This document shows positions 40,290 to 62,419 of a stretch of DNA of 64,000 nt, one piece after another. A program made the position numbers and the translations under genes. Position 1 is the stretch's first letter. The number at the start of each line of letters is the position of its first letter. The stretch covers positions 72,684 to 136,683 of the forward strand of contig CAWJHW010000004.1 in NCBI GenBank assembly GCA_963842855.1. Reading direction: 5' to 3'. Source of the DNA: an uncultured Methylomirabilota bacterium. GTDB lineage: Bacteria > Methylomirabilota > Methylomirabilia > Methylomirabilales > 2-02-FULL-66-22. The notes below the pieces were generated by a model. That model searched no databases and was not told the origin of the DNA. It saw only the letters and a program-made list of their open reading frames with translations.

Positions 40290-40625
40290 TCAGCAATTCT
40301 CGCTGTGGAACAGAGCCAAGGCAAAGTCGTGCCCACGTGGTTCTCGGAAGGCAATGCCGTGGCTAATCTGGGTGCCCGGAGGATCGGCCCACGCGACCTG
40401 CCCGTTGACTGCCAGGAACCCCCGGCGGGTCTGGAGGACGAGGGCCAGGACGCTCCCCGGGACGATCCGGACGGGAAACTTGGCCATCAGCCCGCCCCCG
40501 CCGATGTTCCACACCGTGCCGTGCACCTCGGTGTCGCCGAACTGCGCCGCCCGGCCGACGACCGGCACCGACACGGGCAGCCGCACGAAGCGGCGGTGTC
40601 CCACCTCTTGGCTGCGCTGCCTCAT
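40290..40625 (-). CDS. PilZ-domain protein
   Basis: RRFVRLPV ... VWNIGGGGLM (RxxxR plus a [D/N]xSxxG-like motif). ATGA overlap with the upstream receiver gene. Confidence 0.7.
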   Translation of the reverse strand: MRQRSQEVGHRRFVRLPVSVPVVGRAAQFGDTEVHGTVWNIGGGGLMAKFPVRIVPGSVLALVLQTRRGFLAVNGQVAWADPPGTQISHGIAFREPRGHDFALALFHSENC

Positions 40626-41026
40626 CCTCTCCTCACTCTCCGGGGGTCCCCAATCCCTTCCACGCCCTCGGGGACCGTGGCCAGGAGCTCCGCGTGGTGG
40701 AAGGGCTTCGAGAGGAACCCCGCCACGGGCACGCCGGCCATCCCGACTGGGGCCAACGGCTCGTTCACCGCGGTCATGAGAATGCTCCGCGTTCCTGGGT
40801 GCGTCCGGTACATCGCCTCGCAGACCGCCTTCCCCGACATCCTCGGCATCCACAGGTCCAGGAGGACGGCCCGGATCTTCGCCGCATGCTAGCGGAAGAG
40901 TGCGAGGGCCTCCGGCCCGGCCGTAGCGATGAGGACGTGAAAGCCCTCCGCGGCCAGGACCCCCTGGAGAAGTTCACAGGTGAGCTGATCATCGTCCACC
41001 GCCAAGATCGTCCCGCGATCAGGCAT
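40622..41026 (-). pseudogene. CheY-like receiver protein interrupted by an in-frame TAG
   Basis: MPDRGTILAVDDDQ...ALALFR*HAAKIRAVLLDLWMPRMSG...FLSKPF. All receiver signature residues are present (DD, D57, T, K). TAG at 40889-40891 is codon 46. Confidence 0.7.
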
Positions 41027-41245
41027 CTAGCGCGCTCCCTGACCCTGTGCGGTCTGGTGGGCGCAGTAGCCCGCCACAGCAATCAGTAGGAGAGCTTCTG
41101 CGCCATGGACGATGCCCCCTGGCGTCAGCCGAAAGGGAAAGGGCAGGCTGAACACCAGCAGAAACACTGCCAGTGCGAAGTAAGCAACGCCGAGCCAGAG
41201 CGCAGTGGGAATAAACGTGCGGTAGAAGTTGTCCATGGCTGACAC
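41027..41245 (-). CDS. small two-TM membrane protein
   Basis: 72 aa. Its TAG stop abuts the ATG of the receiver gene. Confidence 0.4.
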   Translation of the reverse strand: MSAMDNFYRTFIPTALWLGVAYFALAVFLLVFSLPFPFRLTPGGIVHGAEALLLIAVAGYCAHQTAQGQGAR

Positions 41246-41403
41246 CTCCCTGCTCCCAACATCTCGTCATCGGCCGTCCAGCCCCCAGGTGACTCCGTGC
41301 CCGCCGCGAACGGGAGGCTGGGGAAGCACCCCTCCAGGTTGCCCCAGGTTCAACGATCTCCCTTCCACCCTGTACCTGTCCCCGCTTGTTTAGCCGCCAG
41401 CTC

Positions 41404-41943
41404 TCAGCGTACCGTGAATTCGCTCATGAAGAGTTCCACGGCCAGCCCCGGCACCACGGGGCCGGCGAACCGGATCCCGTGGGCGATCGGGGGCGCATTG
41501 GAACGGCGCTCGGCGTCGTTCCACACCACAGCCCCCTCGAAGGCACGCCCCCCCTGGCGGGCCTGGAGTTCCAACCGGAGGTGTGTGGACGGAGGGAGGA
41601 TCTCCTGGGTGACGAGGAGCAGCCCGCCGTCGCTCAGGTTCTTCACCTGTCCCCGGCCCTCTCTGCCTTCCGGCCCCCAGAAGCTCGTCGGGAGGTCGAA
41701 GGGAAGGCGCAGGTGCCGGCGGCGGGTCCGGCCCTCCGCCGGAAGGGGGCCGACGGTGGGCGACAGATTCAACGCTCGCTGGAGTGGCCTGGCCAAGCTC
41801 GTCCCGCACGTCGGGCAGCGGAGTGCTTCTCCGTTCCCTTGCTTGAAGGCGGCGACCAGTGCTCCCACCTCCCGCTGGTCGAACGTCTTCGAGCCACCGC
41901 ACATGTCACACGTCAGCGTGATTGCTGTCATGGTGCCGCTCAC
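41404..41943 (-). CDS. zinc-ribbon + PilZ-domain protein
   Basis: CDMCGG...CPTCG four-Cys ribbon, then RRRHLRLPF...VKNLSDGGLLL PilZ motifs. Confidence 0.65.
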   Translation of the reverse strand: MSGTMTAITLTCDMCGGSKTFDQREVGALVAAFKQGNGEALRCPTCGTSLARPLQRALNLSPTVGPLPAEGRTRRRHLRLPFDLPTSFWGPEGREGRGQVKNLSDGGLLLVTQEILPPSTHLRLELQARQGGRAFEGAVVWNDAERRSNAPPIAHGIRFAGPVVPGLAVELFMSEFTVR

Positions 41944-42106
41944 AAACAGCGAGGCCCCGGGCGCAAGGCAGGAAGCCGCACCCAGGGCCTCGCATGCCGG
42001 AAGGACGGAGCCTCCCGGATCCTATTCGATTCGTCCCCCCCCCCGTAATTACCTACACACCTTTACGCGCAAGACTGCCCGAAGTCAAGGGAAATACCGC
42101 TACACA

Positions 42107-42150
42107 TGGTGGCCCTATCGGGACTCGAACCCGAGTTTCAGCCCTGAGAG
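42107..42150 (-). other. tRNA 3' fragment (anticodon loop to CCA), possibly tRNA-Glu-derived; att-like remnant
   Basis: The minus strand reads CTCTCAG GGCTG AAAC TCGGG TTCGAGT CCCGA TAGGGCC A CCA. That is a perfect T-arm, a 3' acceptor strand and CCA. No complementary 5' acceptor or anticodon-stem strand lies upstream. Confidence 0.55.
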
Positions 42151-43796: not shown

Positions 43797-44469
43797 TCAG
43801 AACGCCTCCGCCAAGAGGAGCCCGAGGGCTAGGCTGGTAGTCCAGGTAAGCGACGTAAACCGCACGCCATGGCAGATCGGGGCTCCCGGCGTCCGTCGCT
43901 CCGGGGGATCCACCCATACGGCAACGCCTTCCACTATGACCGGCCCTTTCGCGGTGTGCAAGGTGAGGCCGAGCAGGGTGCTCGGCGGCACCGCCTCGGA
44001 GAGGCGGACGAGCAGCCCGTCCCGGCTCATGTTCCCCGTGCGCCCCTGGAGGGGAGGACCCGGCGGCTGCTTGGCCTGACAGGTGACCGGAATGTCGATC
44101 GAGAGGCGAAGGCCAGCGTGGGACGCCATGCTCAGCGGCAGCAGGAAGTCCCGCAGGGCCTGCAGCCTGGGGTGGGGAAGCCTGGGCGAACACCAGCCCA
44201 TGCAGCACCCCACCCCCCGCGCTGGCTTGCTTTCCCGCCCAGTCCACCTGGGCCGCCAGCTCGATGGGACCGCCCTCGGTCTGGAGGCGCACGATGAAGA
44301 GAGTCTCCGGGCTCAGGCGGTCCGCGAGCTCCACGCATGCGCCGCCCTCGCTGAGGTTGTGGGTCCAGCCGGCCCCCACCCGCGGAGACGGGGAGCCTTC
44401 TATCCGGTACAGAATGGGGAGCTGGACGGGATAGCGAGTAAACCGGCGCTCGGTCACCCGGTCAGGCAT
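43797..44469 (-). pseudogene. tandem PilZ-PilZ protein, frameshifted between the domains
   Basis: Domain 1 is MPDRVTERRFTRYPVQLPILY...GWTHNLSEGGACVEL. Domain 2 (LRLSIDIPVTC...GRTGNMSRDGLLVRL) is in another frame. The switch is at CCCCACCCCAGG (plus coordinates about 44167-44178). Confidence 0.65.
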
Positions 44470-45117: not shown

Positions 45118-47259
45118 TCAGGAGGAGAAGAACGCCCTGAGCCGCCGGGCAGACTCCGGGTTCGGATGGTCGAATCGAACCAGATGGTCAAACGTGGGGG
45201 GAGCGCCAGGAGCCGCCGTGGGTGGTTGAACCTGGACCACCCTGCCGGGAACTGCAATCTCTCGATCGCGCCGAATCAGTCGAAGCTTCAGTTTCTGCCC
45301 CGCGGAAAGTCGCTCCTCGAAGGCCGCTACCATCCCCACTTCGTTGATGCTGGAGATGCGACCTCGCAGCCGCTGGAGGGTCTCCCCGCCCGAGCTCTCG
45401 ACTGTGCACTCAACCACCATGTCCGCGAAGCGGCCTTGGCGCCTCGCCCCTTTCTCGTCCACCCGGTGGGGTCCGGCGGAGGGCGGCGAACCCCCCGGCG
45501 AGCCTGGTGCCTCCACCTGGGCCTGCGTCGCGCCAGACATCCTCCGGGTCAGATCGGCCTCGCGGGGCGGGGGGGCCGCTCGGGTTCCGGCCTCCCGGGG
45601 GCCGAGGTCTGGCAATGTCAGGCCGGGAACGACAGCGAACTGGAGGCCTTCCTCGCGCTGTTGCGTCGAGGCCGCCTCAGCCCTCTGGACAGGGTGGTCG
45701 TCCGCCCGCGGCTGCCGCCGCCGTTCTGCTTCGGCGCGCTGAATCTCAAGCTCTCCGGTGAGCGCAGTGACGCGAGCGGCCAAACGTTCGTTCTCCTCCC
45801 GAAGCTGTTGTTCCCGCCCGGCGGATTCCGCTCGCTCTTGCCGGAGCCGTCGCCAGTCGGCAGTGATCTGCTGCACGCGTTCGATCAGGAGCGTCCGCCC
45901 CGCCACGAGCTTGCGGAGCCGCTCGGGAAGCTGATCCGTAGTTCCCAGCACCTCCCGAACGGACTCGGCGAGCTGCCTCAGGCTCGCGAGCTCCTCCTGA
46001 GTCTGCGCCGACGTCTCTGTCTGAAGTTTCACGCGCTGCACTAGCTCCGCCCAGTGCGCCTCCTCCTGATCGGCTTCCCCACCTCCGCCGGCCCAATCCT
46101 GTGGCCCCCCCACGATGGCCGCAATCTCGCGGAGGAACCCCCGAGCGGCTTGCATCGTCGTGTTCAGGCTGGAGAACTCTTCCCACTGAGAGCGGAGCCG
46201 ATCCTGGAGATGTTCCGCTTGGGCCCGTTCTCCCTCCAGGGAACTCTGGAGGCTCGTGATCTGCTCCTGCGAGCCGGCGAGGTCTCTCCGGGCCGTTTCC
46301 AGGAGCCCCTCCGTGCTGGCCAGGCTGTCGCGCAGCGCGCCCTGCTCCTGCTGGGCCTGGGCGGCGGACTGGCGTGCCTGCTGCAGCGCCTCTTCCATCT
46401 CCGCCAGGCGCGCGCCATGCCGTTGGGCGTCGCGCTCCCTCTCGCGCTCCACCTCCTGGATCCGCTGGCGGAGTTCCACCCCCTGCCGGGTGGACTCTGC
46501 CATGGCGGCCTGGATCTGCTGGATCTCCCGGGTGCGGCCCTCCAGCGCCGCCTGACTTTGCGACAGCTCCTGGCGGAGCTGATCGAGCTTCCGCGTCCGC
46601 TCCTCTGCAGTAAGCTGCAGTCTCTTCCGCTCGGCGGTCAGAGAGTCCATCTGCGCCGTGAGGGAACTCTGGAGGCTCGTGATCTGCTCCTGCGAGCCGG
46701 CGAGGTCTCTCCGGGCCGTTTCCAGGAGCCTCTCCGTGCTGGCCAGGCTGTCGCGCAGCGCGCCCTGCTCCTGCTGGGCCTGGGCGGCGGACTGGCGTAC
46801 CCGTAGGAGCTCCCGCTCCAGGGTACGGACCATCTCGCGCAGTTCCCCCGCCTGCCGGGTGGAATCCCGGACCGCGGCCTCGAGTTTCTCGATCTCCCGG
46901 GTGCGGCCCTCCAGCGCCGCCTGGCTCTGGGCCAGCGCCTCCCGGAGTTGGTCCAGGTCCCGCCTCCGCTCCTCAAGGCCGGACCGCAGTTCATCCCGCT
47001 CGGCGGTCAGAGAGCCCATCGGCGCCGCAAGCCCGCCCCGCTCCGCCAGGATCGTACGTCGCTCATTCTGGAGGATGGTCAGGCGGTCTCGCAGTTCCTC
47101 GATTTCTCGCCCCCGCCGACGGAACCCCTCGTTCAAGGAATCCAGGATCGTGACGAGCCCCTTGGTATACCCGATGGCGTCGCCCAGGACCTTATCGTGC
47201 CACGCATCCGGTGGTGGCGGAACCTGCTGTTTGTTATCGGTGGCGTCCGACTCGGGCAT
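45118..47259 (-). CDS. large coiled-coil protein with a C-terminal PilZ domain
   Basis: 713 aa from ATG 47259, with GGAGGA 5 nt upstream. About 550 aa of heptad-like Glu/Arg/Leu/Gln sequence. C-terminal RRQGRFADMVV...GRISSINEVGM PilZ-like motifs. Confidence 0.7.
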   Translation of the reverse strand: MPESDATDNKQQVPPPPDAWHDKVLGDAIGYTKGLVTILDSLNEGFRRRGREIEELRDRLTILQNERRTILAERGGLAAPMGSLTAERDELRSGLEERRRDLDQLREALAQSQAALEGRTREIEKLEAAVRDSTRQAGELREMVRTLERELLRVRQSAAQAQQEQGALRDSLASTERLLETARRDLAGSQEQITSLQSSLTAQMDSLTAERKRLQLTAEERTRKLDQLRQELSQSQAALEGRTREIQQIQAAMAESTRQGVELRQRIQEVERERERDAQRHGARLAEMEEALQQARQSAAQAQQEQGALRDSLASTEGLLETARRDLAGSQEQITSLQSSLEGERAQAEHLQDRLRSQWEEFSSLNTTMQAARGFLREIAAIVGGPQDWAGGGGEADQEEAHWAELVQRVKLQTETSAQTQEELASLRQLAESVREVLGTTDQLPERLRKLVAGRTLLIERVQQITADWRRLRQERAESAGREQQLREENERLAARVTALTGELEIQRAEAERRRQPRADDHPVQRAEAASTQQREEGLQFAVVPGLTLPDLGPREAGTRAAPPPREADLTRRMSGATQAQVEAPGSPGGSPPSAGPHRVDEKGARRQGRFADMVVECTVESSGGETLQRLRGRISSINEVGMVAAFEERLSAGQKLKLRLIRRDREIAVPGRVVQVQPPTAAPGAPPTFDHLVRFDHPNPESARRLRAFFSS
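46239..46798. repeat. internal tandem duplication within the coiled-coil gene
   Basis: The 137-bp segments 46239-46375 and 46662-46798 differ at about 1 position (offset 423 bp). A second shared block, GATCTCCCGGGTGCGGCCCTCCAGCGCCGCCTG, lies at about 46522 and 46891 (offset 369 bp). Confidence 0.75.
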
Positions 47260-47778: not shown

Positions 47779-48816
47779 ATGGTCGAAGGTAAGTTCCTGT
47801 TTCTTCCCCCCGCCGCCACTCCCAGGGACCTCGATGAGTTGCTACCGACTGAGGAGGACCGCGCACACATTCTTGTGGTGGACGATGATGCGCTGATCCG
47901 AGAGATTCTCGCGGATCAATTGATGGAGGCGGGCTACGCGGTGAGTTCCGCTGAGGACGGCGAAGAGGCCCTGGCGAAGGTGGCGAGCGAATCACCGGAC
48001 TTGATCCTCCTGGATATCATCATGCCCAAGCTCGACGGCTTTGAGGTGTGCCGGCGCTTGAAGTCCGACGAGCGGACAATTCTGATCCCCGTCGTGATGC
48101 TCACGGCGCTCACCGCGACGCAGGATCGGATCCGGGGCATCCACCTGGGGGCCGATGAGTTCCTGAGCAAGCCGTTCGACCGCCAGGAGCTGATGGCCCG
48201 CGTCCGCTCCTTGCTGCGGCTCAAACGGCACACCGACGAACTGGAGAACGCAGAGACGGTGCTGTTCAGCCTGGCCGTCAGCATTGAGGCCAAGGATCCG
48301 TGGACCAACCAACACTGCGAACGCCTGGCCCGCATGTCCGTCACCTTGGGGAATACCCTGAGGTTACCCCGTAAGTTGCTGAGGGCCATGTACCGGGGCG
48401 GCATCCTCCACGATCTCGGCAAGATCGCGACCCCCGAGGGCATCCTGCTGAAATCCGGGCCCTTGACCGAGAGCGAGCGCACCAGAATACAGGAACATCC
48501 GATCATCGGCGAGCAGATCTGCGCCCCCCTGAAGTCCCTCCACTATGTCCTCCCCATCATCCGCCACCACCACGAACGCTGGGACGGGACCGGCTATCCC
48601 GACGGGCTCGCCGGCGAGGCGATCCCCCTCACCGCACGCATCCTGCAGACCGTGGACATTTACGACGCTCTCACCTCCGCGCGCCCGTACCGGCCGGCCT
48701 ACAGCCACGAGGAGGCCTGTGCCATCCTGCGCGAGGAGACCGCCAAGGGCTGGCGGGACGCCCGCTTGATCGAGGCCTTTCTTGCCCTGACCTCCACAAA
48801 CCCGGTGAGTTCGTAG
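47779..48816 (+). CDS. response regulator with an HD-GYP c-di-GMP phosphodiesterase domain (RpfG-like)
   Basis: Receiver (ILVVDDD...LILLDIIMPKLDG...LSKPF) followed by HD-GYP (GGILHDLGK, HHERWDGTGYPDGL). Start taken at ATG 47779. Confidence 0.85.
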   Translation: MVEGKFLFLPPAATPRDLDELLPTEEDRAHILVVDDDALIREILADQLMEAGYAVSSAEDGEEALAKVASESPDLILLDIIMPKLDGFEVCRRLKSDERTILIPVVMLTALTATQDRIRGIHLGADEFLSKPFDRQELMARVRSLLRLKRHTDELENAETVLFSLAVSIEAKDPWTNQHCERLARMSVTLGNTLRLPRKLLRAMYRGGILHDLGKIATPEGILLKSGPLTESERTRIQEHPIIGEQICAPLKSLHYVLPIIRHHHERWDGTGYPDGLAGEAIPLTARILQTVDIYDALTSARPYRPAYSHEEACAILREETAKGWRDARLIEAFLALTSTNPVSS

Positions 48817-49213: not shown

Positions 49214-49897
49214 ATGCCCACCATCACGGCGGACTAACGACGCCCTCCCCGGCATCCGGTACAACTCCCCCTCCGCCACAAGCAGAAAGCGCCCGCATCG
49301 CCGTGGACCGGCATCGGTTGGACGCACAACCTGAGCGAGGGGAGTGCCTGTGTGGAGCTCAACGAGCGGCTCAGACCCTCGACCCTGCTCCCGGTCTGCC
49401 TCCAGACAGAGCGCGGGGCCATCGAGGTAGAGGCCCGGGTCATCTGGGAAGTGGGGGCCGAGCGGGCAGGGGGGACGGAAGGTGGCATCCTTCACGGGGT
49501 GCTCTTCACGCACCTGGCCCCGGCCCAACTGCACCTGCTCCGCGACCTGCTCCTCTCCCGGCAGGGAGAGCGGCGCGCCGGGCTCCGGCTCCCTGCCGAC
49601 CTCGTCGTAACGTGTCGGCCCCAGGGGCAAGGGGACCTCCCGCTCCAGGGCCGGACTGAGGACCTCGGCCGGGGGGGCCTCTTGCTCCGGCTCACCAAGG
49701 CCTTTCCACCCGGGACGCCAGTCGAACTCACGTTGCACCAGCCGAGTGGTCCGGTCACCGCAGAGGGAGAGATCGTCTGGACGGACCCACCCGAGAAGTG
49801 CAAGCGCGGAGAGCCGATCCGCCACGGCGTCCGCTTCACAGCCCTCGGCTGGTCTCGGTCGCTCTCCCTGGCGCTCGTCCTCTCGCGGGCGGCGTAG
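49214..49897 (+). pseudogene. tandem PilZ-PilZ paralogue with TAA at codon 8
   Basis: MPTITAD*RRPPRHPVQLPL...GWTHNLSEGSACVEL...GRTEDLGRGGLLLRL aligns with 43797..44469. TAA is at 49235-49237. The next in-frame start (GTG 49352) would delete half of domain 1. Confidence 0.65.
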
Positions 49898-50129
49898 GTG
49901 GGCTCTCCCCTCTGTCGCGGCGCTCGCGGTGGTTGGGGGCCGGGCGGCCTCTGCACTGACGTCCCGGGAGCAGTCGGGCTACGATCGGCATCGGGGGCTG
50001 CCGGGGACACGGGCGGGACCGCGGACGTGCTCTCTGCGCCGCACCGGCGGGCCCGGTGGCCAGAGGATCCCTCTGTGGAGGCGTTGGCGATCGTCGGATG
50101 CTCCTGACAACTGGAGGCGCACCCTGCCC

Positions 50130-50795
50130 ATCCCATCGGAGGACTGTCGCAACCCGCGCTGGCCGATTCGGCTTCCCGTCCTCCATTGGCCCGACGATCC
50201 CCCGGCCCCGAGCGGGGGCGTGGGCTGGAGCCGCGACCTAAGTGAAGGGGGCGCCTGCCTGGAGCTGAACGAATGCCTGCAGCCGCAGCGGTCGCTTCGG
50301 CTTCGCCTCCAGACAGAGCGCGGGGCCATTGAGGCGGAAGCCCGAGTCGTCTGGGTGGGGGACCCGGCCTCTCCTGCGAGCGGCATCCCCCACGGCGTGA
50401 CCTTCACCCGCCTCGCCCCGGACCAGTGGCGGGCGCTCCACGACGTGGTGCACCGCAAGGCCGAGCGGGGAGACACGCGATTCCGCGTCCCGATCGACCT
50501 TCGCGTCACGTGCCACCCCATCGGCGCAGGGGGGCCGCTGATCGAGGGACGGACCGGGAATGTGAGTTGGGGAGGGCTCTTGCTTCGCCTCTCCGTGAGG
50601 TTCGCGCCCGGGACAGCCCTGGGAGTTACCCTGCACGCCCCGGGCGGGCCGCTCAAGACGGAAGGCGTGGTTGTGTGGGCCGAGTCGCCACAGCAACCGC
50701 CCCATGGGGGCCCTGTCCGGCACGGCTGCCAGTTCACAACGCTCGGCTGGGCCACCGCGCTGCCCCTGGGGCTCGTCGTGGCCGAGTCCTTGTAG
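50130..50795 (+). pseudogene. tandem PilZ-PilZ paralogue without a recognisable start codon
   Basis: IPSEDCRNPRWPIRLPVLHW...GWSRDLSEGGACLEL...GRTGNVSWGGLLLRL. ATC (50130) sits where the paralogues have ATG. The in-frame upstream sequence is Arg/Ser-rich read-through. Confidence 0.55.
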
Positions 50796-52727: not shown

Positions 52728-53100
52728 TCACGCGTCGAGGACGGCATACTCCTGCCTTTGAGGATCATTCCGATTCTCCGGAAAGGCGCCCATCTGCAAC
52801 GCCTGGCGCCCCGTCTCTTCCTCATTCACCGCCGTGACCATGGTGACGCCTGCCTCCGGGTCAATCTCCTGCACCCGCCCCAGCATCTTCGAGCCGACGG
52901 GACAGCCGACGACCATCACAGCCTTCTGCTCGAATGACAACCGGAGGCCGCAACGGCTCCCGGGACGGAGGATGCCCGGGTGCTCCAAGCGGGCACCGCC
53001 TATATTCGAGTCCAGGGTGCGGGCCTCGTGGCTCACCGTGACGTCGCCGGTCACCACTTCTCTGAACGTGAGCCGGCCGTATCGCCGTTTCGGGGAGTAC
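52728..53100 (-). pseudogene. PilZ remnant fused to a 23-aa receiver-gene fragment; no start codon
   Basis: KRRYGRLTFREVVTGDVTVSHEARTLDSNIGGARLE PilZ motifs lie upstream of the first possible start (GTG 53057). The frame is -1 relative to the preceding PilZ gene. 52781-52849 copies 53961-54029 (GVTMVTAVNEEETGRQALQMGAF). Confidence 0.5.
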
Positions 53101-53101
53101 T

Positions 53102-53491
53102 CTAACCTCGTGGCGCTCCTTCTGCCTGGTGGGCCAGCCGCCCGAGGTAGAGGCGGTGAAAGAGGGCATCTGCCTCGGATTCATAGCCGGCCAGTGCGAT
53201 CCCGTGGAAGACGCCCGCCGCCGTCTCTTCAGCCCAGACCACCCTCCCGCGAATCCGCAGGCCAAGACCGCCGATGTCACATCGGACCTCAATCTGCGTG
53301 CCCAGGGATACGGGTCTGTCCAAGCGGAGACAGCATCCAGCCGCAGAGAGATCCTGGAGGGTCCCCCGGAATACGACCCCGCCATCCAGGGGTTCCCCTT
53401 CGACGCGGTGCCAGGTAGGGTACCTGGGGAATTGCCGCCGCTCGGGACCGGACTTCCTGGCCATGGGTGCTCGCTCCCTCTGGTGACTCAT
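53102..53491 (-). CDS. PilZ-domain protein
   Basis: ERRQFPRYP...GTLQDLSAAGCCLRL. ATGA overlap with the upstream PilZ gene. Confidence 0.65.
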   Translation of the reverse strand: MSHQRERAPMARKSGPERRQFPRYPTWHRVEGEPLDGGVVFRGTLQDLSAAGCCLRLDRPVSLGTQIEVRCDIGGLGLRIRGRVVWAEETAAGVFHGIALAGYESEADALFHRLYLGRLAHQAEGAPRG

Positions 53492-53850
53492 CCGAACGTC
53501 GGCCAGGGTGGGAACTCCTCGTGGGCAATCTCTGCAACCAGTTCTCCGGGCAGCTCCTCGCTGAACTGGATCCCCAGGGCCCAGCCGGGAAACCTGGAGC
53601 GCGGCCGCACCCAGATGACGGTTCCCGTGAGGAAGAGGGGTGGGCGCCGACAGGGGCTCAGGGCCACCTCCACCTTCGCGCCGGGGAGGAGGGGTTTGGT
53701 CAGGCGCAGGAGCATCCCGCTCCGGCTCAGATTCTCCACTTCCCCCACATCGGGGCCGTCCGGACCCCCGACCGGCTCAGACACGGCTGGGACCCGAACG
53801 GGAAAGCGCGGAGCCACGGTACGCCAGAGCTCGAACGGCAGGCCCATCAC
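53488..53850 (-). CDS. PilZ-domain protein
   Basis: APRFPVRVPA...GEVENLSRSGMLLRL, 120 aa. Confidence 0.65.
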   Translation of the reverse strand: MMGLPFELWRTVAPRFPVRVPAVSEPVGGPDGPDVGEVENLSRSGMLLRLTKPLLPGAKVEVALSPCRRPPLFLTGTVIWVRPRSRFPGWALGIQFSEELPGELVAEIAHEEFPPWPTFG

Positions 53851-53882
53851 ATCCCCTCAGGGATCTGCCGACGGTACGCCCG

Positions 53883-54251
53883 TCACAGGGTCATCATCTG
53901 GATCTTGACCCAGAGGCTCCGCTCCAGGTATGTGAAGTCCAAGGGTTTGGTAATGTAGTCGAAGGCGCCCAGCTGGAGCGCCTGGCGGCCCGTCTCTTCC
54001 TCGTTCACCGCCGTGACCATGATGACGCCCACCTCGTGGTCCATCGCCCGCACCCGCTTCAGGACCTCCAGGCCGTTCATCCCGGGCATGCGCACGTCCA
54101 AGAGGATCACGTGGGGCCGTTCCTCCTTGACCTTCCGCAAGGCTTCCTCCCCGTCGGAGGCCGTGAGGACCTCGTACCCCTTGGCGACCAGGAACTCCTG
54201 GAGCATCTCGACCGCGTCCGGTTCGTCATCCACTACCAGAACCCGCGGCAT
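53883..54251 (-). CDS. single-domain CheY-like response regulator
   Basis: MPRVLVVDDEPD...VILLDVRMPGMNG...VIMVTAV...ITKPLD. Start taken at ATG 54251. Confidence 0.85.
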   Translation of the reverse strand: MPRVLVVDDEPDAVEMLQEFLVAKGYEVLTASDGEEALRKVKEERPHVILLDVRMPGMNGLEVLKRVRAMDHEVGVIMVTAVNEEETGRQALQLGAFDYITKPLDFTYLERSLWVKIQMMTL

Positions 54252-54285
54252 GGCACCCCCGCTCGTATGCGTGGCTGTCCGTCCC

Positions 54286-56785
54286 TCAAAGCGCCGGGGG
54301 CGCTTGGGGGCCGCCAAAGGGGAGGAAGACTGTGAAGGTGCTGCCCTTGCCCTCGCCCTCCGACTCGGCCCGGATGCGCCCGCCGTGCATCTCCACCAGG
54401 CGTTTGGTCAGGGCGAGGCCGAGACCGGTTCCCTCGTGCTTCTGGGCCTGGGTCGTCTCGAGCTGCACGAACTCCTGGAACAGCCGCGGCAGATCCTCGG
54501 CCTTGATCCCCACCCCGGTATCCGTCACGCGAATCTCAAGGAGAGTCCTGTCCGCAGCCGACCGACTGGCTGCGAGGCCGATCCTGCCATTGTCCGGGGT
54601 GAACTTGACCGCGTTGCTCAGGAGATTGAAGAGAATCTGCTTGAAGCGGACCGGATCGGCCCGGAGGGGTGGGAGGTCCGCCTCGATTTCGGCCTCGACG
54701 GTCTGCGCCTTCTTGTTGGCGAGCGCGCGGCCGATGACGAGGATGTCCTCCAGGGTGGCCCCCACCGGCAGGGTCTTCCGGCTGGAGAACGAACTTTCCC
54801 GCCTCGACCTTGGCGAGATCCAAGACATCGCTGATGAGCTGGAGGAGGTGCTTGCCCGCGTTGTCGATGTGCCCGAGGTACCGGGCCTGCTTCTCGGTGA
54901 GCGGCCCCACCCCCTCGCCCAACAGGAGTTCGGAGAACCCCATGATGGAATTGAGCGGCGTCCGGAGTTCGTGGGACATGTTGGCCAGGAACTCCGACTT
55001 GTGCCGGGAGGCCTCTTCAATCTGGCGCATGACCTCCTGAAGTCGAGCATTCGCAATGCGAAGTTCCCGGGTCCGGTCGTCCACGGTGGCCTCGAGCTGG
55101 ATGGCGGCCAGACGCTGCTCCTCGTAAAGCTGGCTGTTCTCCAGGGCCACAGCCATCTGGCGGGCAAAGGTCTCCAGGAGGCGCAGGTCTTCGGCGGAGA
55201 ATTGGCGCCCGGCCTCGGTATGGTTCAGGGTCAGCACTCCAATGAGGCGGTCCCGATATTTCAAGGGGGCCGCCATGCAGGCCAGCAGGGGCTCGTGCTG
55301 GAGGAGCTGCCGGTCGTGCCGGGGATCGGCGGCGTACTCATTCCAAATGAGCCCCCGTCCCGCCTCTGCCGCCCCCCCCGTGATGCCCTGGCCCAGGCGA
55401 TACCCCACCTGCCGCATAAAGTCGCCCAAGTTGAGCCAGGCTCGAGGCCTGAGAACCTGTTCGTCTTCATCCCAGAGATACAGCGTTCCGCTATGGGCTT
55501 GGATCAGGGTAACGACGCGGTTCACCAGCTCCCGGAACAGCGCCTGAAGGGGCCGCTCGCCCACAATGTCGCGGCTCAGATCCATTACGGATTGCAGCTC
55601 GCTCGTGCGTCGCCGCTCGCTCTCGTAGAGCCGGGCGTTCTCCCTGGTGATGGCGGCGTGGGCGGCAAAGGCTTGGAGCAGGCTCGTCTCCTCGTCGGAG
55701 AAGTCGTGGGGCACGCGCGTGTAGATCGCCAGGGCGCCCGTGACCCGGTCGCCGAAGGTCAGCGGCACGATGATGCACGAAACCAGGCCTTCCGCCATCG
55801 CCCAGGCCCGATTGATGAAGCGCGGATCTTGAGTGACATCCCGGCTGGTGACGGGCTGCCGCGTGGCGGCGGCAATACCCAGCAGCCCCTCGCCGGGGCG
55901 GAGTTTCAGGGTGAGCCCACCCCGCGCCTCGCGGAGGCCGACAGCGGCGACCGCCTGGAGCACCTCCGTCGATTCGATTCGCTCCCAGAGCCGGCCCGCG
56001 GTGCCCGGCAGAAGACGCTGGACGGCCGTGAGGATCTCCTGGCCGACGCGGACGGGATCCAACTCCCTCGCTAACGTGCGGGTCAGCTCGTTGAGTGTTG
56101 CGAGCTGTCGGCTGCGGGCACCCAGCGCCTCTTCGGCTCCCTGGCGTTCCGCGCGGGCGCGCAGGGAGACGGTGCCACACGCGAGGTCGTCTGCCAGTTC
56201 ACGGACGAGCCGTACTTCCTCCGCGTCAAAGGCATCCGGCTCCGCCGCATAGATGTTGAGGGCGCCGAGGGTCTGCCCCTCGGCCACCAGCGGAAGGGCG
56301 ATGGAGGAGGCATAGCCGCGCTTGGTCGCCTCGGCGCGCCAGGGGGCGAAACGGGGATCGGTCGGAATGTGGCGGGCGATGACGGGCTTGCCTGCCCGGA
56401 TGGCGGTGCCGGTAGGGCCTCGTCCCTGCTCTGTGTCGGCCCAGGTGATGTGGAGCGTCTCGAGGTAGCCCTCCTCATAGCCCGCCTGCGCCACCGGGCG
56501 CACGGTCTTCCGCTCGTCCTGCTCGGCGAAGCCGACCCACGCCAACCGGTAGCCGCCGGCCTCCACAAGGATCTCGCAGGTGGCGCGCAGGAACTCGGAT
56601 TCCTCCCGGGCGCGAACCAGCGTCCGGTTAAATCTCGTGAGCACCCTGAGAGCCCGGTGGACCCTGGGGAGCTTCCTCTCCTCATCCGCTGATGCCGGGA
56701 TTCCCTTGTGGCAGCTCGGCCCGTCGCCGGACACGGAACACCATCCTTTGTGTGGGGGAGCACGCGAGGCATCTGCCCCGAACAC
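54286..56785 (-). pseudogene. multi-GAF sensor histidine kinase, frameshifted between HisKA and HATPase_c
   Basis: Three GAF-like regions and HisKA (SEFLANMSHELRTPLNSI) are in frame 54536..56785. The ATP-binding domain (LLSNAVKFTP, GTGLGLALTKRLVEMHGG) is in frame 54286..55167. The switch is near 54770-54790. Confidence 0.8.
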
Positions 56786-56833: not shown

Positions 56834-57403
56834 TCAAGAAGGCTTCTCGCCCTTGAAGACGATCTCCAGGACCGCGTGGATATCCGTGAGCTTGATCGGC
56901 TTCCGAAGCAACATCGCCGGCCCGTGCTCCAGGGCCGCCAGGGTGTCGTCGTGGTAGGGATAGCCGGTGATGAGGACGACCACGGCCTCAGGATCCCGCC
57001 GCTTGATGGCCTTGAGGACGCTGGCGCCACCGACTTCGGGCAGGAGGATATCGAGGAAGATGAGGTCGAAGGATTCTCGCCGGACGATGCGCAGGGCTTC
57101 CCGGCCGTCGCGGGCCAGGGCCACCGCGTACCCTTGGACCTCCAGGGCGGCCTTGAAGGCCTCCCGCACCACGGCCTCATCATCCACCACGAGGACGCGC
57201 CTGGGCGCGGGGGGATCGAGGGTGAGGGGGATCTGGTTGTCGGCGAGGAACTTCCGGAATACCGGCCGGGGGATCCGGTAGTGACCTCCCGGGACGCGGT
57301 AGGCTGTGAGCTTCCCGGCGCGGATCCAGCCAAACACGGTGACCCGCGTGACGTGGAGGAGCCGGGCGATCTCCCCGGTGCTCAGGGGCTTTTCCTCAAG
57401 CAC
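56834..57403 (-). CDS. excisionase-type HTH + receiver domain response regulator
   Basis: LSTGEIARLLHVTRVTVFGWIRAGKLTAYRVPGGHYRI (excisionase/MerR-like HTH), then VLVVDDE...LIFLDILLP...LRKPI receiver. Confidence 0.75.
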   Translation of the reverse strand: MLEEKPLSTGEIARLLHVTRVTVFGWIRAGKLTAYRVPGGHYRIPRPVFRKFLADNQIPLTLDPPAPRRVLVVDDEAVVREAFKAALEVQGYAVALARDGREALRIVRRESFDLIFLDILLPEVGGASVLKAIKRRDPEAVVVLITGYPYHDDTLAALEHGPAMLLRKPIKLTDIHAVLEIVFKGEKPS

Positions 57404-57575: not shown

Positions 57576-57863
57576 ATGGCCATCCACGTGACAAAGACCC
57601 TGCAGAAGGCCCTGGTCGAGCTTCAGGCGGAGCGGGAGCGGATCTTCAAGCAGAGCGTCGCCATTCAGAAGGCATTGGCGGCAGGCGGGTCGCGGCGGCG
57701 GCCTGCCGTTCGGGGCCAGGCCGCGAGTCGTGGGAAGCGGGCGCGAAAAGGGATGAGCGCCGCCGCACGCAAGGCCGTGAGCCGACGGATGAAGGCGTAC
57801 TGGGCGAAGCGGAGGGCAGCGTCGGCGAAGGGCAAAGCGCGGGGGACGCAAAAGGCCGAGTAA
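57576..57863 (+). CDS. small basic coiled-coil protein, possible DNA-binding/nucleoid-associated
   Basis: 95 aa with a strong AGGAGGA RBS. N-terminal helix, then a Lys/Arg-rich tail (RKGMSAAARKAVSRRMKAYWAKRRA). Confidence 0.5.
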   Translation: MAIHVTKTLQKALVELQAERERIFKQSVAIQKALAAGGSRRRPAVRGQAASRGKRARKGMSAAARKAVSRRMKAYWAKRRAASAKGKARGTQKAE

Positions 57864-59068: not shown

Positions 59069-59896
59069 TCACGCGGCCTCACGCTGGGGCCGCAGGGCAA
59101 AGTAGACCATATCGGGGGTCTGGCCGTCAAGGGCCGAATGGGGCCGGCCCTGATGGGAAAAGGTGAAGTAACGCGCCAGGCGCCGACGGGCCTCGGCCAC
59201 AGAGTCATAGGCATGCAGATACACTTCTTCGTACTTGACGCTCTTCCACAGGCGCTCGACAAAGAGGTTGTCGCGCCAGGCGCCCTTGCCGTCCATGCTG
59301 AGCCGGATGCCGTGCTCCCGCACCAGGCCGACAAAGGCGGTGCCGGTGAATTGGCTGCCCTGGTCGGTGTTCACGATCCCTGGAGGACCGTAGTCCCGGA
59401 TCGCGGCCTCGAGGGCGTCGAGACAAAAGTCCACCCTCATACTATTCGAGAGGCGCCAGGCCAAGACCCGCCGCGTGGCCCAGTCCAGCACGGCTGCCAG
59501 GTAGACGAAGCCTCGGCGCATTGGGATGTAGGTAATGTCCATGGCCCACACCTGATTGGGGGCGGTGATCGCCCGGTCGCGCAGCAGGTACGGAAACACC
59601 GCATGGCCCGGGTGCGGCTGGGTGGTCCGGGGGCGCTGAGACCGGGCGGCGATCCCCCTCCGGCGCATCCGCGTGGCCCCGGGCGTGCGCCCGACGGCCA
59701 CCCCGGCCAGCCGCAACAGATCCCGGAGCATCCGGCGACCGGCACAGGGATGCGGGAGATGCCGTTCATCGAGGTGGCGCATCCACGCCACATCCGCCGC
59801 CGCGACCGGCTGGGGGACGGCGTACACGGACGACCGGGCAACCGCCACGAGGTGACACTGGCGCCCCACCGGCAGTGGGTGCTGGCGGTCACTCAT
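59069..59896 (-). CDS. IS3-family transposase OrfB (rve integrase core)
   Basis: PNQVWAMDITYIP, NTDQGSQFTG and WKSVKYEEVYL are DDE/rve motifs. The ATG at 59896 overlaps the orfA TGA (ATGA). Confidence 0.85.
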   Translation of the reverse strand: MSDRQHPLPVGRQCHLVAVARSSVYAVPQPVAAADVAWMRHLDERHLPHPCAGRRMLRDLLRLAGVAVGRTPGATRMRRRGIAARSQRPRTTQPHPGHAVFPYLLRDRAITAPNQVWAMDITYIPMRRGFVYLAAVLDWATRRVLAWRLSNSMRVDFCLDALEAAIRDYGPPGIVNTDQGSQFTGTAFVGLVREHGIRLSMDGKGAWRDNLFVERLWKSVKYEEVYLHAYDSVAEARRRLARYFTFSHQGRPHSALDGQTPDMVYFALRPQREAA

Positions 59897-60195
59897 CGCT
59901 TCGCGCTCGCAGCGGGGATGCGACCGAGCGCGCCGGCCCAACAATCGTTCTGCATGGCCCACTGGCCGCTCGTGGCGTGCAACTCCTTCCCGTTGGGCGT
60001 GGCGGCCTTGCGCTCGCCTGCCGTGGCGAACCGGTCCGCAGCGCCCTCCTGCAGTTGGGTCTTCCACTGCACGATCTGGTTGGGGTGGACAGCCTACTGC
60101 GGCGTGAGCTCCGCGAGGGTCCGATCGCCCCGCAGGGCCGCGCGTGCCACCTTGGCCTTGACGGGTGCGGCGTGATTTCGTCGGGGTCGTTTCAT
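59893..60195 (-). pseudogene. IS3-family OrfA (HTH) with an in-frame TAG
   Basis: MKRPRRNHAAPVKAKVARAALRGDRTLAELTPQ*AVHPNQIVQWKTQL. TAG at 60094-60096 sits where homologues have Tyr. RBS AAGGAGA is upstream. Confidence 0.7.
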
Positions 60196-60252
60196 GGGCT
60201 GCTCTCCTTGAGGGACGGGGGATTCTCCCATCCAGTAGAGCAGAGTTTTCAC

Positions 60253-61098
60253 TTAAACGCCTGTCCTATTTTCCGGAGCCGGCTCTGTTGCCTGAGGGCC
60301 TTTGCGAGGCCCGAGGATTTCGAGAAGCACCAGCAGCCCCGTGTAGACGTCGTGCTCCCAGACAGGGGTGAAGCTCGCCGCGAGGAGTCGTCCCGTTAGG
60401 TCAACGGTCAGCGTGTGGCTCTCGGCCTCGGGGTCGGTCCGGAGCTTCTCCGTCGTCCTCTGCACGGTTTCCCGATACGTCGGTCCGAAGACGTCCCAGA
60501 GCTTTGCCCCGATCAGCGTCTGCTCGCCGGACTCCACCATCCGCAAGGCCGCTGGGTTCACGTAGCAGATCCGATCTTCCCCATCCGCCTCGAGGACCCC
60601 CTCGCTCAGACTCCGCAGCAGCACGTCGACGTGGCGTCTCATGCTGAGCAGCTCGCTCACCAGCCGCCGCGGGCGAAACCCCTCATACCCGAAGACCGCC
60701 TCCGCAAGGGGGGCCGATCGGCCGGCGCGTTCCAGATGTTGGAGCGCGGCCAGGAGGTTCTTGGTCACAATGGGCAGCGGCCCCTTGGCCACATAGGCAT
60801 CGGCCGACACCTCCGGCATGCCCCCGATATCCCGGGCCGCCAGCGCCGAGAAGACGACGATGGGGATGTGCCGGAGGCGGGAATCTTCCCGGAGATACCG
60901 GCACAGCCGCCCTCCATCCACCTTGGGCATGACGAGATCGAGGACGAGGAAATCCGGCGGGTCCGCTCGGACCGCCTGCAGGGCTTCCAGACCGTCCGGC
61001 GCCACCCGCACCTGGTATCCCTGCTCGTGCAGGAATTCCCCGACCGCCTCCCGGACGAACCGATCGTCGTCGACGAGGAGGACGGTTTTCTGCTTCAC
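60253..61098 (-). CDS. response regulator receiver + PAS domain protein; stop codon abuts the IS3 end
   Basis: VLLVDDDRF...FLVLDLVMPKVDG...YVAKGP receiver, then a PAS-like region (LSEGVLEADGEDRICYVNPAALRMVE). The TAA at 60253-60255 lies 1-2 nt from the IS3 terminus. Confidence 0.75.
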   Translation of the reverse strand: MKQKTVLLVDDDRFVREAVGEFLHEQGYQVRVAPDGLEALQAVRADPPDFLVLDLVMPKVDGGRLCRYLREDSRLRHIPIVVFSALAARDIGGMPEVSADAYVAKGPLPIVTKNLLAALQHLERAGRSAPLAEAVFGYEGFRPRRLVSELLSMRRHVDVLLRSLSEGVLEADGEDRICYVNPAALRMVESGEQTLIGAKLWDVFGPTYRETVQRTTEKLRTDPEAESHTLTVDLTGRLLAASFTPVWEHDVYTGLLVLLEILGPRKGPQATEPAPENRTGV

Positions 61099-61682
61099 GG
61101 GATCCGCTCCGCCTGTTGCAGCATGTGCCCGAGCACCCGCTCCAGCCTCGGGCCGAGCTTGTCGGGGGTCGCGTCGGCTCCCTTGTTCAGGTAGAGCGCG
61201 GGGGCGCAGTGACTGATGGCCTGCTTGAGGGTCTCGTTATACCGGACGGCCGACAGGAAGAGGAGCGGCGTGGGGCGACCCACCTTCAGGGCCTGCTCGA
61301 GGGCCCGGTAGGCGACGGCCGTGGCGAGGCCGTCGAGCGGTTCCATGAGGATGTCGAGGATGGCCACCTTGTTGGGCAGGCCCTGGAGCAAGCGTTCGGT
61401 GGCCAGGGTCAGGAACGTCGCGCCGCTCTCACAGGCGATGACGTTGGCCGTCAAGCCCCGGTCCACCAAGAGGTCGGCCACGAGCGTCCGGAAGAAGCGG
61501 TCGTCGTCCGCGATGAGGATGCAGTCCACGCCGCGGAGGGGATGGCTCTCCTCGGTCCCCAACGCCAAACCGCAGGAGCTGCAGCGGACCTCGAGGGCCC
61601 CGGACTTCACGACGGTATAGGTGTAGACCTGCTCGCCGCAGCTCGGGCAGTATCGGAAGGGCGCCTTTGGGTCGGCCGGCAC
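61095..61682 (-). CDS. zinc-ribbon + receiver-like domain protein
   Basis: CPSCGE...CSSCG ribbon, then ILIADDDRFFRT...VAILDILMEPLDG. GTG start at 61682, 6 nt after AGGAGG. 4-nt overlap with the next gene. Confidence 0.55.
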   Translation of the reverse strand: MPADPKAPFRYCPSCGEQVYTYTVVKSGALEVRCSSCGLALGTEESHPLRGVDCILIADDDRFFRTLVADLLVDRGLTANVIACESGATFLTLATERLLQGLPNKVAILDILMEPLDGLATAVAYRALEQALKVGRPTPLLFLSAVRYNETLKQAISHCAPALYLNKGADATPDKLGPRLERVLGHMLQQAERIP

Positions 61683-61987
61683 CACGAACCTCCTCGGACA
61701 AGCCGGTGACCGCCACCGGCGCCCACCTGACGCCTGGTTCCCCTGGCGCCAAGCTGGGTGGGACCCCGAGCGGCAGTGAGGTACGTCCACTCTAGAGGAC
61801 AGGATTTCCGGCGTCAAGGAGCTTTTCGCTCAGCGTGCTGCGGCTCGCCCAGCGGCTCGGCGATCCCCGGCCGGCCGCCTGCGGTCGCCGGTCAGGGGGA
61901 ATCTCGGGAGGATCGACGCCGAGGCGACGTGTCCAACGCCCGGAGTGGTGCGGACGCGGGAATGAGCCGTCTCCATCGCTGACGCGC

Positions 61988-62419
61988 TCACTGGTGGCGA
62001 CGGGGCACCACGCGTGAGGCCGCGGGGGTCGCGCTCAGGAAGCACTCGGTTCTCGCTTCAGGCGGATCCTCCCCCGCGTGCCCCACAAAGCCACCCTGCC
62101 GCCTCGACCCGCCCGCACGCTCGGTCGCGCTGTTCAGCGAGGAAGCGGTCCAGGGCGAAGCCGGACCATGGGGGGTTCGGACAGCGAAGCCGTGGCGAAT
62201 CCTGCCCCCCGTCTCGGAAGTCCAGACGACCCGGCCTTCCACAGGCAGGGGGCCATGACGCCTCTGGAGGACGAGGGCCACGACGCTCCCCGGGACGATC
62301 CGGACGGGACACTTGGCCATCAGGCTGCCCCCGCCGAGGTTCCATACCGCGCCGTGCACCTCTGTGTCGCCGAATTGCGCCGCCCGGCCGACGACCGGCA
62401 CCGACACGGGCAGCCGCAC
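61988..62419 (-). pseudogene. 5'-truncated, frameshifted paralogue of the PilZ gene at 40290..40625
   Basis: About 150 bp (62264-62417) is roughly 90% identical to 40431-40577. The copy begins at RLPVSVPV and lacks the RRFV codons. The C-terminal part matches only in another frame, with a C run near 62175. Confidence 0.6.

Follow-up and report, generated by a model that had tools for sequence, protein, structure and literature searches.

We analysed a stretch of 64,000 nucleotides on contig CAWJHW010000004.1 (the whole stretch is called the window in the following) and found that about one third of it, positions 40,290 to 62,419, is occupied by a dense cluster of genes with PilZ domains, which are receptor domains for cyclic di-GMP (c-di-GMP), a second messenger. 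Our reading, to which we assign a probability of about 0.72, is that this region is a strain-variable, PilZ-rich signalling neighbourhood made up of at least five modules, which is being dismantled by mutation in this strain. The finding as such is real and better than chance. The named homologues of the window proteins come from Candidatus Methylomirabilota, Methylomirabilales and NC10, and the host belongs to the Methylomirabilota (NC10/Rokubacteria phylum). The G+C content of the window is about 66%, and real genes were chosen by their third-position G+C (GC3) and then subjected to hmmscan against Pfam. A PilZ domain was called when PF07238 scored above the gathering score of 22.5 bits, and as a second counter a local profile was built from the window's own domains and run in six frames over the 64 kb. 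Comparators were independent assemblies of related strains (L001, L085, L086, L170 and L171-L173) and the proteins P0001, P0084, P0121 and P0241/P0242.

PilZ domains in the window

A preliminary description of the window had counted about 13 PilZ domains in ten loci and had named hmmscan as the check on these assignments. With Pfam we obtained 12 domains above the cut-off, distributed over nine of the ten loci within 22.1 kb (scores 24.1-72.6 bits), which supports most of the earlier calls; the locus that drops out is the one at 52728 (locus 9), which lies below the Pfam PilZ cut-off. The six-frame scan with the local profile recovered the same 12 domains and gave none at positions 1-40 kb. 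Two domains each are present at 43600-44469, 49214-49897 and 50124-50795, in genes which we refer to as tandem PilZ-PilZ genes (loci 3, 5 and 6).

For comparison, the PilZ-rich genome of Myxococcus xanthus comprises about 9.1 Mb. Relative to its 24 PilZ proteins (bioRxiv 10.1101/2021.03.04.433885), the 12 domains in 22.1 kb amount to a roughly 200-fold higher density. Among relatives, contexts centred on a tandem-PilZ gene contain 1-3 PilZ genes per 13-20 kb. The local profile matched one PilZ in contigs centred on a Ysc84 gene (391 kb, mostly probably from the same phylum) and no PilZ in 1.19 Mb of other loci. The PilZ density of the window exceeds that of every sampled context, these being loci and not whole genomes, and the exceptional local density noted earlier was confirmed on this basis.

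Inactivating mutations

Six of the ten PilZ loci had been described as carrying an apparent lesion, and about six are indeed affected, with intact alleles present in L085, L086, L170 and P0241/P0242. Four of the lesions were assessed against independent assemblies of strains with 96-98.5% identity, and one, a stop codon in the single-domain response regulator gene REC134, against protein orthologues with 88% identity. In REC134 a CAG codon is changed to TAG at 40889-40891, where the orthologues (P0241 and P0242, intact, 134 amino acids (aa), 88%) read ALFRQHAAK. The lesion ascribed to locus 1 belongs here: the PilZ gene itself is intact, and the stop codon is located in the coupled upstream REC gene. 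In locus 5 a CAA codon is changed to TAA at 49235; P0001 and L085 have Gln at this position, and the TAA is also found in the independent assembly L001. The start codon of locus 6 at 50124 is CTG in the window and in L086, and ATG in L085. The remaining two lesions are single-base insertions, a C at 44167 in locus 3 relative to the intact L170/P0084 and a T at 54777 in the histidine kinase gene relative to the intact P0121/L086. Both nonsense mutations (40889-40891 and 49235-49237) are C to T transitions at glutamine codons. Loci 9 and 10 contain debris of an older date.

Other strains carry locus 5 lesions of their own: L086 retains the CAA codon but has a 2-bp deletion at 49577, and in L001 a run of seven G is shortened to six. 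Such G-run polymorphisms were noted at 49671-49677 (G7 versus G6, in the second PilZ domain of locus 5) and at 51330-51337 (G7 versus G9, in an unannotated open reading frame (ORF) at 50845-51405).

The window differs from L085 by 59 substitutions and no insertions or deletions (indels) over 2.8 kb. Point lesions are confined to the 13 kb of coding DNA in the cluster, while none occurs in the 27 kb of Pfam-supported coding DNA at positions 1-40 kb. The clustering of the lesions has P~4e-4 if seven are counted, and P~1e-3 for the corrected count of six, the latter from a hand calculation.

Mosaic structure of the cluster

Comparison across strains indicates that the cluster is not one module but a mosaic of at least five separately conserved modules, which meet at strain-variable junctions with insertion sequence (IS) elements. 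Module A abuts a type IVa pilus cluster and consists of the genes for a zinc-ribbon (ZnR) PilZ protein (locus 2), a 69-aa membrane protein, REC134, a stand-alone PilZ protein of 111 aa (locus 1, PilZ111) and a bactofilin; in L171-L173 (95-97% nucleotide identity) it is followed by the same CBS, BON and pilus genes. REC134, the marker protein of this module, has index entries in 44 collection blocks, and the full module A is present in the three contigs shown. Module B is the tandem PilZ-PilZ gene of locus 3, which is reproduced in L170, and module C is the coiled-coil-PilZ gene of locus 4. Module D, an HD-GYP response regulator gene followed by two tandem PilZ-PilZ genes, is reproduced in L085, L001 and L086. 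Module E is an operon in the order HTH-REC (helix-turn-helix and receiver domains), kinase with three GAF domains, REC, PilZ, PilZ and a chimeric remnant, and module F is the IS-ridden end of the cluster with a REC-PAS gene, a ZnR-REC gene and a truncated PilZ gene. L086 (96.6% identity over 13 kb) carries the HD-GYP gene, both tandem-PilZ genes, the remnant, the two PilZ genes, REC, kinase, HTH-REC, the small gene and the rve IS element in the same order. The operon order read from the window in the preliminary description therefore recurs in this strain, there with an intact kinase, and the supposed PilZ remnant at its end was borne out as a chimera of half a PilZ domain and a REC copy.

The strain contigs leave the window sequence at 41942, 42142/43354, 43362, 43565, 44778 and 51222; L171 and L170 part from it at 43565 and L085 at 51222. 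At 11716-11843 the reverse complement of L171 ends translating to ...PKPFVWTKSAEAILEKV..., which resembles the C-terminus of a transposase and suggests that an IS element may have inserted in L171 at about window position 43566. The pair 42142/43354 marks a segment with a Ysc84/SYLF-domain gene that is absent from L171-173, where 42142 joins 43354 directly across a 9-bp repeat. The segment was found in other contexts in L087-89, and tblastx of these contigs against the window yielded nothing but noise outside it. The junction (42100-42142 and 43340-43360) resembles a tRNA 3' end with T-arm, acceptor stem and CCA, flanked by CCCGAGTTT; a tRNA integration site at 42142 was rejected, as neither ARAGORN nor Rfam gave a tRNA in the window or L171. 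A direct repeat of 54 bp, identical in both copies, is present at 57591-57644 and 62418-62471. Its first copy is the 5' part of the small gene at 57576, and the second is fused head-on to the truncated PilZ pseudogene (locus 10), forming a rearrangement junction that is spanned by no independent contig.

Selection and age of the PilZ genes

Relative to L086, the pooled PilZ genes show 30 nonsynonymous and 14 synonymous differences (Nd and Sd), as against 21 and 40 for the HD-GYP, REC and HTH-REC genes and the small ORF taken together (Fisher P=8e-4). Relative to L171, the nonsynonymous divergence (dN) of the PilZ and REC genes of module A is 0.03-0.06, whereas bactofilin, dehydrogenase, CBS and PilB genes range from 0.005 to 0.013. 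These values agree in direction with a constraint on the PilZ genes that is weak or relaxed.

Within 7 kb lie the three tandem-PilZ paralogues, whose domains are 43-54% identical to one another; orthologues at 97-98% exist for each gene separately, and two of the three have further ones at 71-84%. Because the paralogues are this divergent and each has a close orthologue of its own, the duplications are old and the decay alone recent. The only recent-looking PilZ copy is the fragment at locus 10. This fragment shares 94% identity with the PilZ gene at locus 1 of L171 and 80% with locus 1 of the window itself, and since it is closer to the gene of the other strain, exchange between strains is suggested. 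Of the rapid birth-and-death turnover proposed in the preliminary description, the death is documented by the verified lesions, while rapid birth finds no support, the paralogues being 43-54% identical and having their own orthologues; the evidence supports death and reshuffling of these genes and not their rapid birth.

Genes of the cluster and its surroundings

The coordinates of all features are given in Table 1.

Table 1. Features of the window in order of position, with strand, state and supporting evidence (bit scores from Pfam).
Feature	Position	Strand	Description and state	Evidence
Housekeeping genes	first 40 kb		GlnRS, ccm operon, FO synthase, RtcB	full-length domain matches
Type IVa pilus cluster	24433..33090	(-)	two pseudopilin genes, TPR-secretin, PilO-like, PilM, PilB-type ATPase, PilC	Pfam
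PilB-type ATPase	30006-31739	(-)	MshEN N-domain	Pfam and structure match
Bactofilin gene	39657..40130	(-)	157 aa	PF04519, 91.9 bits
Locus 1 (PilZ111)	40290..40625	(-)	stand-alone PilZ, 111 aa, intact	PF07238, 31.6 bits
REC134	40622..41026	(-)	single-domain response regulator of 134 codons, codon 46 being an in-frame TAG (40889-40891)	
Membrane protein gene	41027..41236	(-)	69 aa, predicted; conserved between ZnR-PilZ and REC genes	
Locus 2 (ZnR-PilZ)	41404..41931	(-)	zinc ribbon (CDMC...CPTC) and PilZ, 175 aa, intact	PF07238, 32.4 bits
Indel segment	42143..43353	(-)	carries Ysc84/SYLF gene, flanked by 9-bp repeat CCCGAGTTT	
Ysc84/SYLF-domain gene	42372-43352	(-)		PF04366, 113 bits
Locus 3	43797..44469	(-)	tandem PilZ-PilZ, linker between the domains hit by a +1 insertion (CC vs C) at 44167	PF07238 in two frames, 29.3 bits (43797) and 32.5 bits (43600 frame)
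Locus 4	45118..47259	(-)	713 aa, coiled coil of ~550 aa and C-terminal PilZ, intact	PF07238, 27.3 bits
HD-GYP regulator	47779..48816	(+)	RpfG-type response regulator, REC and HD-GYP, intact	HD_5, 135.6 bits; REC, 110.1 bits
Locus 5	49214..49897	(+)	tandem PilZ-PilZ, 227 codons, CAA to TAA at codon 8 (49235-49237)	PF07238, 72.6 bits (from 49238, two stretches)
Locus 6	50124..50795	(+)	tandem PilZ-PilZ, 223 codons, CTG start codon	PF07238, 66.7 bits (from 50130, two stretches)
Locus 9	52728..53180	(-)	chimeric remnant, degraded half PilZ (RRYGR...NIGGAR) and REC copy, without proper start codon	
Locus 8	53102..53491	(-)	stand-alone PilZ, 129 aa, intact, canonical motifs (RQFPR, DLSAAG)	PF07238, 49.2 bits
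Locus 7	53488..53850	(-)	stand-alone PilZ, 120 aa, intact, overlapping locus 8 by ATGA	PF07238, 41.8 bits
REC gene	53883..54254	(-)	single-domain response regulator, intact, dN/dS 0.08	Response_reg, 116 bits
Histidine kinase gene	54286..56734	(-)	GAFx3-HisKA-HATPase, frame lost between HisKA and HATPase by a +1 insertion (TT vs T) at 54777	
HTH_17-REC gene	56834..57403	(-)	response regulator, first gene of operon	Pfam
Small gene	57576..57863	(+)	95 aa	
Transposase gene	59069..60067	(-)	rve integrase core; IS inside cluster	rve, 89.6 bits
REC-PAS gene	60253-61098	(-)		Pfam
Zinc-ribbon/REC-like gene	61095-61829	(-)		Pfam
Locus 10	61988..62419	(-)	PilZ pseudogene, 5'-truncated at 62418 junction, frameshifted near 62170	PF07238, 24.1 bits
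IS21 IstB gene	63291..64000	(-)	helper ATPase; IS at cluster edge	PF01695, 223.6 bits

In module A, the TGA of REC134 overlaps the ATG of PilZ111 (ATGA) in the window and in L171-173, and the two are distinct genes coupled in translation. That locus 1 is a frameshifted REC-PilZ fusion was rejected, as its orthologues are a separate 134-aa receiver and 111-aa PilZ protein with the ATGA overlap; a fusion was found only in one distant homologue (P0250, 42% identity). Orthologues of locus 1 (111 aa) and of locus 2 (175 aa) are present in L171-173. Locus 1 contains the motif RRFVR, with NIGGGG as second motif (Ser to Gly), while both c-di-GMP motifs of locus 2 are canonical (RRHLR and NLSDGG). The bactofilin gene is located directly 3' of the REC/PilZ pair, in the same position as in L171-L173, and an exact-protein look-up of the bactofilin matched no record.

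The intact orthologue of locus 3 (P0084/L170) has 223 aa and 98.5% nucleotide identity. The consensus of the tandem family keeps RxxxR and [D/N]xSxxG in both domains, and the variants NLSEGS and DLGRGG of locus 5 are kept in its orthologues. For P0001, which is the 98% orthologue of locus 5, AlphaFold gave a model with a confidence (predicted local distance difference test, pLDDT) of 84.8 that displays two six-stranded barrels with a helix after each. Its best matches in Foldseek are the c-di-GMP receptors VCA0042/PlzD, PP4397, MotI, MrkH and YcgR, and comparison with the single PilZ domains of BcsA, Alg44 and PA PilZ gave template modelling (TM) scores of 0.64-0.78, which apply to the tandem family only. 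A search of the PDB sequences with the tandem-family profile yielded no significant match (best E=0.29). More distant orthologues of locus 5 (79-84% identity) are located in unrelated contexts with one or two PilZ genes. Among relatives, L167 carries three tandem-PilZ genes in a row (9168-13310), adjoining a phage-type integrase, in L169 (1-10657) a tandem-PilZ gene adjoins a type III-A CRISPR-Cas locus, and in L168 (8785-10684) one is located directly downstream of a GAF-GGDEF cyclase whose stop codon abuts the PilZ start. A reading of the cluster as a defence island, prompted by the integrase and type III CRISPR neighbours, was discarded, with PADLOC giving nothing specific: generic coiled-coil, REC and HD matches only, and no PilZ protein matched.

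The C-terminal region of locus 4 is matched by 30 clusters among 1.84 billion representatives, about half of which are 570-760 aa long with the PilZ domain at the very end; relatives have the N-terminal motif and the repeats in common with it. The coiled-coil-PilZ family is rare. The coiled coil of locus 4 contains an internal tandem duplication of about 420 nt with 74% identity (46238-46658 and 46661-47027).

The HD-GYP phosphodiesterase response regulator named in the preliminary description agrees with both Pfam and motifs. Its translation contains the signature residues HDLGK (HDxGK) and GTGYP, and at the sequence level it has the domains of an RpfG-type regulator and is a predicted phosphodiesterase; the ratio of nonsynonymous to synonymous divergence (dN/dS) is 0.16. 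An exact copy is present in L001, and the nearest homologue in a reference genome is 60% identical.

The earlier count of five receiver-domain genes and a GAF kinase was confirmed by Pfam (HTH-REC, REC, REC-PAS, ZnR-REC, REC134 and the GAFx3-HisKA kinase). HTH_17-REC has an orthologue of 189 aa in L086, and the intact kinase orthologue (P0121/L086) has 815 aa, with the HATPase domain of the window copy in a second frame. An exact-protein look-up of locus 8 matched no record. The upstream half of locus 9 scores 10.6 bits with the local profile (one of 1000 shuffles scores higher), the locus carries an RRxxxR, and its 3' part is a 114-nt copy of the REC segment 53962-54075 (82% nucleotide identity; 71% over 38 aa, E=4e-16). 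Locus 9, also present in L086, is accordingly a chimera in which a marginal half of a PilZ domain is joined to a fragment copied from a receiver gene. The rve IS element is likewise found in L086. Short tandem repeats of 12 and 36 nt (GGCAGCGCAGGGGTGAGCGCA...) occupy 62869-62955, between the PilZ pseudogene and istB.

The pilus cluster is context for the PilZ cluster and is located outside the cluster proper. Its genes fit what is expected of type IVa pilus machinery (a PilB-type ATPase with PilC, PilM/N/O and a secretin, and pilins bearing an N-methylation motif), and the cluster looks complete and has a secretin with N-terminal TPR repeats; the block 24433..33090 is kept at 95% nucleotide identity in L171. 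The PilB-type ATPase matches the PilB structures 5TSG and 3JC8 at E~1e-123, and its MshEN domain scores 58.2 bits in Pfam. Next to the pilus block, L171 has about 570 bp in place of a 1.7-kb segment (33397-35083); in the window this segment contains a high-GC3 ORF at 33775-34488 (-), and the G+C content nearby falls to 0.61. Three IS-type elements were identified in the window (IS630-like at 2894-4001, the rve transposase at 59069-60067 and IS21 IstB from 63291 onward). The IS630-type element (HTH and DDE_3, in two frames) adjoins a fragment of a glycosyltransferase family 9 gene (2170-2610), where the first 40 kb has its only likely disruption of a gene.

Neither a GGDEF nor an EAL domain was found in the Pfam-scanned ORFs or by a motif scan of the window, a non-exhaustive check that agrees with the absence stated in the preliminary description.

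Alternative explanations

The alternative of sequence errors offered in the preliminary description, here taken to mean that the lesions arose in sequencing or assembly while the cell has all ten loci intact, would account for the insertions at 44167 and 54777, which are single-base and present in the window only, and for G-run lengths that vary between assemblies (49671-49677, 51337). It is nevertheless very unlikely because three of the lesions are substitutions (CAG to TAG, CAA to TAA, ATG to CTG), atypical of indel-type errors, because the TAA recurs in L001 and the CTG in L086 with intact alleles elsewhere, and because indels are absent relative to L085 over 2.8 kb and lesions, frameshifts included, from the ~27 kb of housekeeping coding DNA. 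Moreover, no long homopolymer is extended by the inserted bases, which lengthen runs of a single base (CC vs C, TT vs T). One or both insertions may be errors, while the inactivating mutations are, judged on these comparisons, probably real and recent. Errors of a larger kind would be at work if the window were a chimeric metagenome assembly of PilZ fragments with an inflated density, as might be suspected from the six junctions at which strain contigs diverge (41942 to 51222), the exact 54-bp repeat at a junction and the lack of independent support for 44779-47339 and 60629-62449. This we regard as improbable to a similar extent, considering that L086 confirms the contiguity of 13 kb with six domains and the remnant, that L171 does so for 7 kb that take in loci 1 and 2 and goes on into the flank of locus 3, and that L088 and L089 span the 42142 junction; the break of L171 at 43566 is explained by the transposase-like end found there, and the HD-GYP gene is on record within a contig of 0.2-1 Mb.

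If the genes are truly damaged, the region could still be a working integrated control centre whose lesions leave function, by the CTG start, by re-initiation or by a kinase and tandem-PilZ proteins in two pieces. Domain-sized products are conceivable, since the TAA is located at codon 8 and the locus 3 frameshift in the linker; GGAGG precedes the CTG, and dN/dS is below 1 for several PilZ genes. We consider such a centre improbable, as the next start after the TAA (GTG at 49352) is located past the first domain's two binding motifs, the ATPase domain of the kinase is lost, loci 9 and 10 are clearly debris, and strains differ in the disabling mutations of the same gene, as in neutral decay. 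It is also unlikely, if somewhat less so, that the density is ordinary for the lineage, in that Methylomirabilota genomes would be PilZ-rich and their PilZ genes often arrayed. In favour of this view, the tandem-PilZ family is large in the phylum (180 matches), module A is widespread, and L167 shows a succession of three tandem-PilZ genes and L168 two of them plus a GAF-GGDEF gene. However, none of five sampled PilZ-centred contexts exceeds three genes per 20 kb, background contigs gave about one match in the 391 kb mentioned above, and the locus 5 orthologues at 79-84% reside in unrelated, PilZ-poor contexts.

Several observations weigh against the reading of a modular PilZ neighbourhood under dismantlement. 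The frameshifts at 44167 and 54777 were seen only in the window, and the CTG start of locus 6 may still permit some translation. The local profile used for the density background in relatives is narrow and probably misses distant PilZ domains, and the dN/dS values are based on small counts. No independent contig extends across 44779-47339, 60629-62449 or the join at 43565. Both motifs (RxxxR and [D/N]xSxxG) are canonical at aligned positions in about four of the 12 domains (41404, 43600N, 50130C and 53102), the others having Ser to Gly, Gly to Ser or Arg to His/Cys changes or offset arginines. No diguanylate cyclase is present in the window, and what connects the PilZ genes with the pilus and bactofilin genes is adjacency.

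Relation to known systems

The domain families found here are known; what is unusual is their arrangement and density, and no new principle is involved. PilZ-PilZ tandem proteins have been described mainly from alphaproteobacteria (B. diazoefficiens Bll4394/Blr5568, S. meliloti SMc00999; Galperin & Chou, bioRxiv 10.1101/814665). The proteins of the window resemble them in having two canonical PilZ domains per ~225-aa protein with a C-terminal helix each, the helices being taken from the model; they differ in forming a Methylomirabilota family with three paralogues within 7 kb. The YcgR/MotI/PlzD (VCA0042) proteins are the best full-length structural match (Foldseek E~1e-7) and are alike in size and in an adaptor-type logic without output domain. 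In contrast to these, the N-terminal domain is here PilZ itself (PF07238) and not PilZN/YcgR-N, identity is 9-16% and the domains are oriented differently (root mean square deviation 12-18 Å). No flagellar genes were found in the Pfam-scanned window ORFs, and the likeness to a YcgR-like flagellar brake is a structural one only.

M. xanthus has the PilZ-REC response regulator PixA, PlpA, and PixB, which is without the Ser of the second motif (bioRxiv 10.1101/2021.03.04.433885). The pairing of PilZ with a receiver, a PilZ set of multiple paralogues and the presence of type IV pili are common to the PixA/PlpA set and the window, and the second-motif Ser is absent from several window domains as it is from PixB. 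Unlike PixA, REC and PilZ are here separate coupled genes, and they are physically clustered; in the PilZ literature searched we found no description of physical clustering of PilZ genes, in Myxococcus or elsewhere. The HD-GYP regulator shares the REC and HD-GYP architecture and the HDxGK and GYP motifs with RpfG-type regulators, its immediate neighbours being two tandem-PilZ genes and not rpf genes. Another parallel is offered by the PilB/MshE ATPases, as the adjacent PilB-type ATPase has a Pfam MshEN domain. In a Nat Commun study of 2016 this domain was reportedly found to bind c-di-GMP, with tandem 24-residue motifs of the form RLGxx(L/V/I)(L/V/I)xxG... The PilB-type ATPase would then represent a second class of c-di-GMP receptor in the region, although by eye only part of its 24-residue motif can be made out in the N-terminus. 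Literature searches on PilZ in Methylomirabilota/Rokubacteria, on bactofilin-PilZ operons and on PilZ clusters or pseudogenes returned nothing relevant.

Possible function and significance

When phosphorylated, the HD-GYP regulator would lower c-di-GMP, and input would come from the GAF kinase together with its partners REC and HTH-REC. The PilZ proteins may bind c-di-GMP through RxxxR and [D/N]xSxxG and pass the signal on to partners. Because they have no enzymatic or DNA-binding output domain, we infer by analogy with YcgR, MotI, PlpA and PixA that they would act as adaptors, the most plausible partners being the adjacent bactofilin, the coiled-coil protein and the pilus machine. A specific functional link to cytoskeletal scaffolds and pilus function might be seen in the conserved order REC/PilZ/bactofilin next to the pilus genes, in the coiled-coil-PilZ protein and in the MshEN domain of PilB; we put it forward tentatively, at somewhat less than even odds. 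More speculative, and rather unlikely in our estimate, is an undescribed c-di-GMP/phosphorelay polarity module composed of the module A core by the pilus genes, the coiled-coil-PilZ gene and the kinase-REC-PilZ-PilZ operon, in which PilZ adaptors would couple the second-messenger level to cytoskeletal scaffolds and pilus placement. If this were true, the region would be a clustered analogue of the dispersed PixA/PlpA/bactofilin circuitry of Myxococcus, and the knock-outs of the strains would constitute a natural allelic series.

PilZ receptors are usually scattered in the genome, and their partners are hard to guess. In the window, nine PilZ genes adjoin candidate partners, namely a bactofilin, a coiled-coil protein, an MshEN PilB ATPase and an HD-GYP regulator. 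The host phylum is uncultured and its signalling is little explored, with no PilZ paper found for the phylum. The comparison across strains provides a clean example of a second-messenger effector set that is lost piecemeal, with independent hits on the same gene, and such piecemeal loss bears on the speed at which c-di-GMP networks are rewired.

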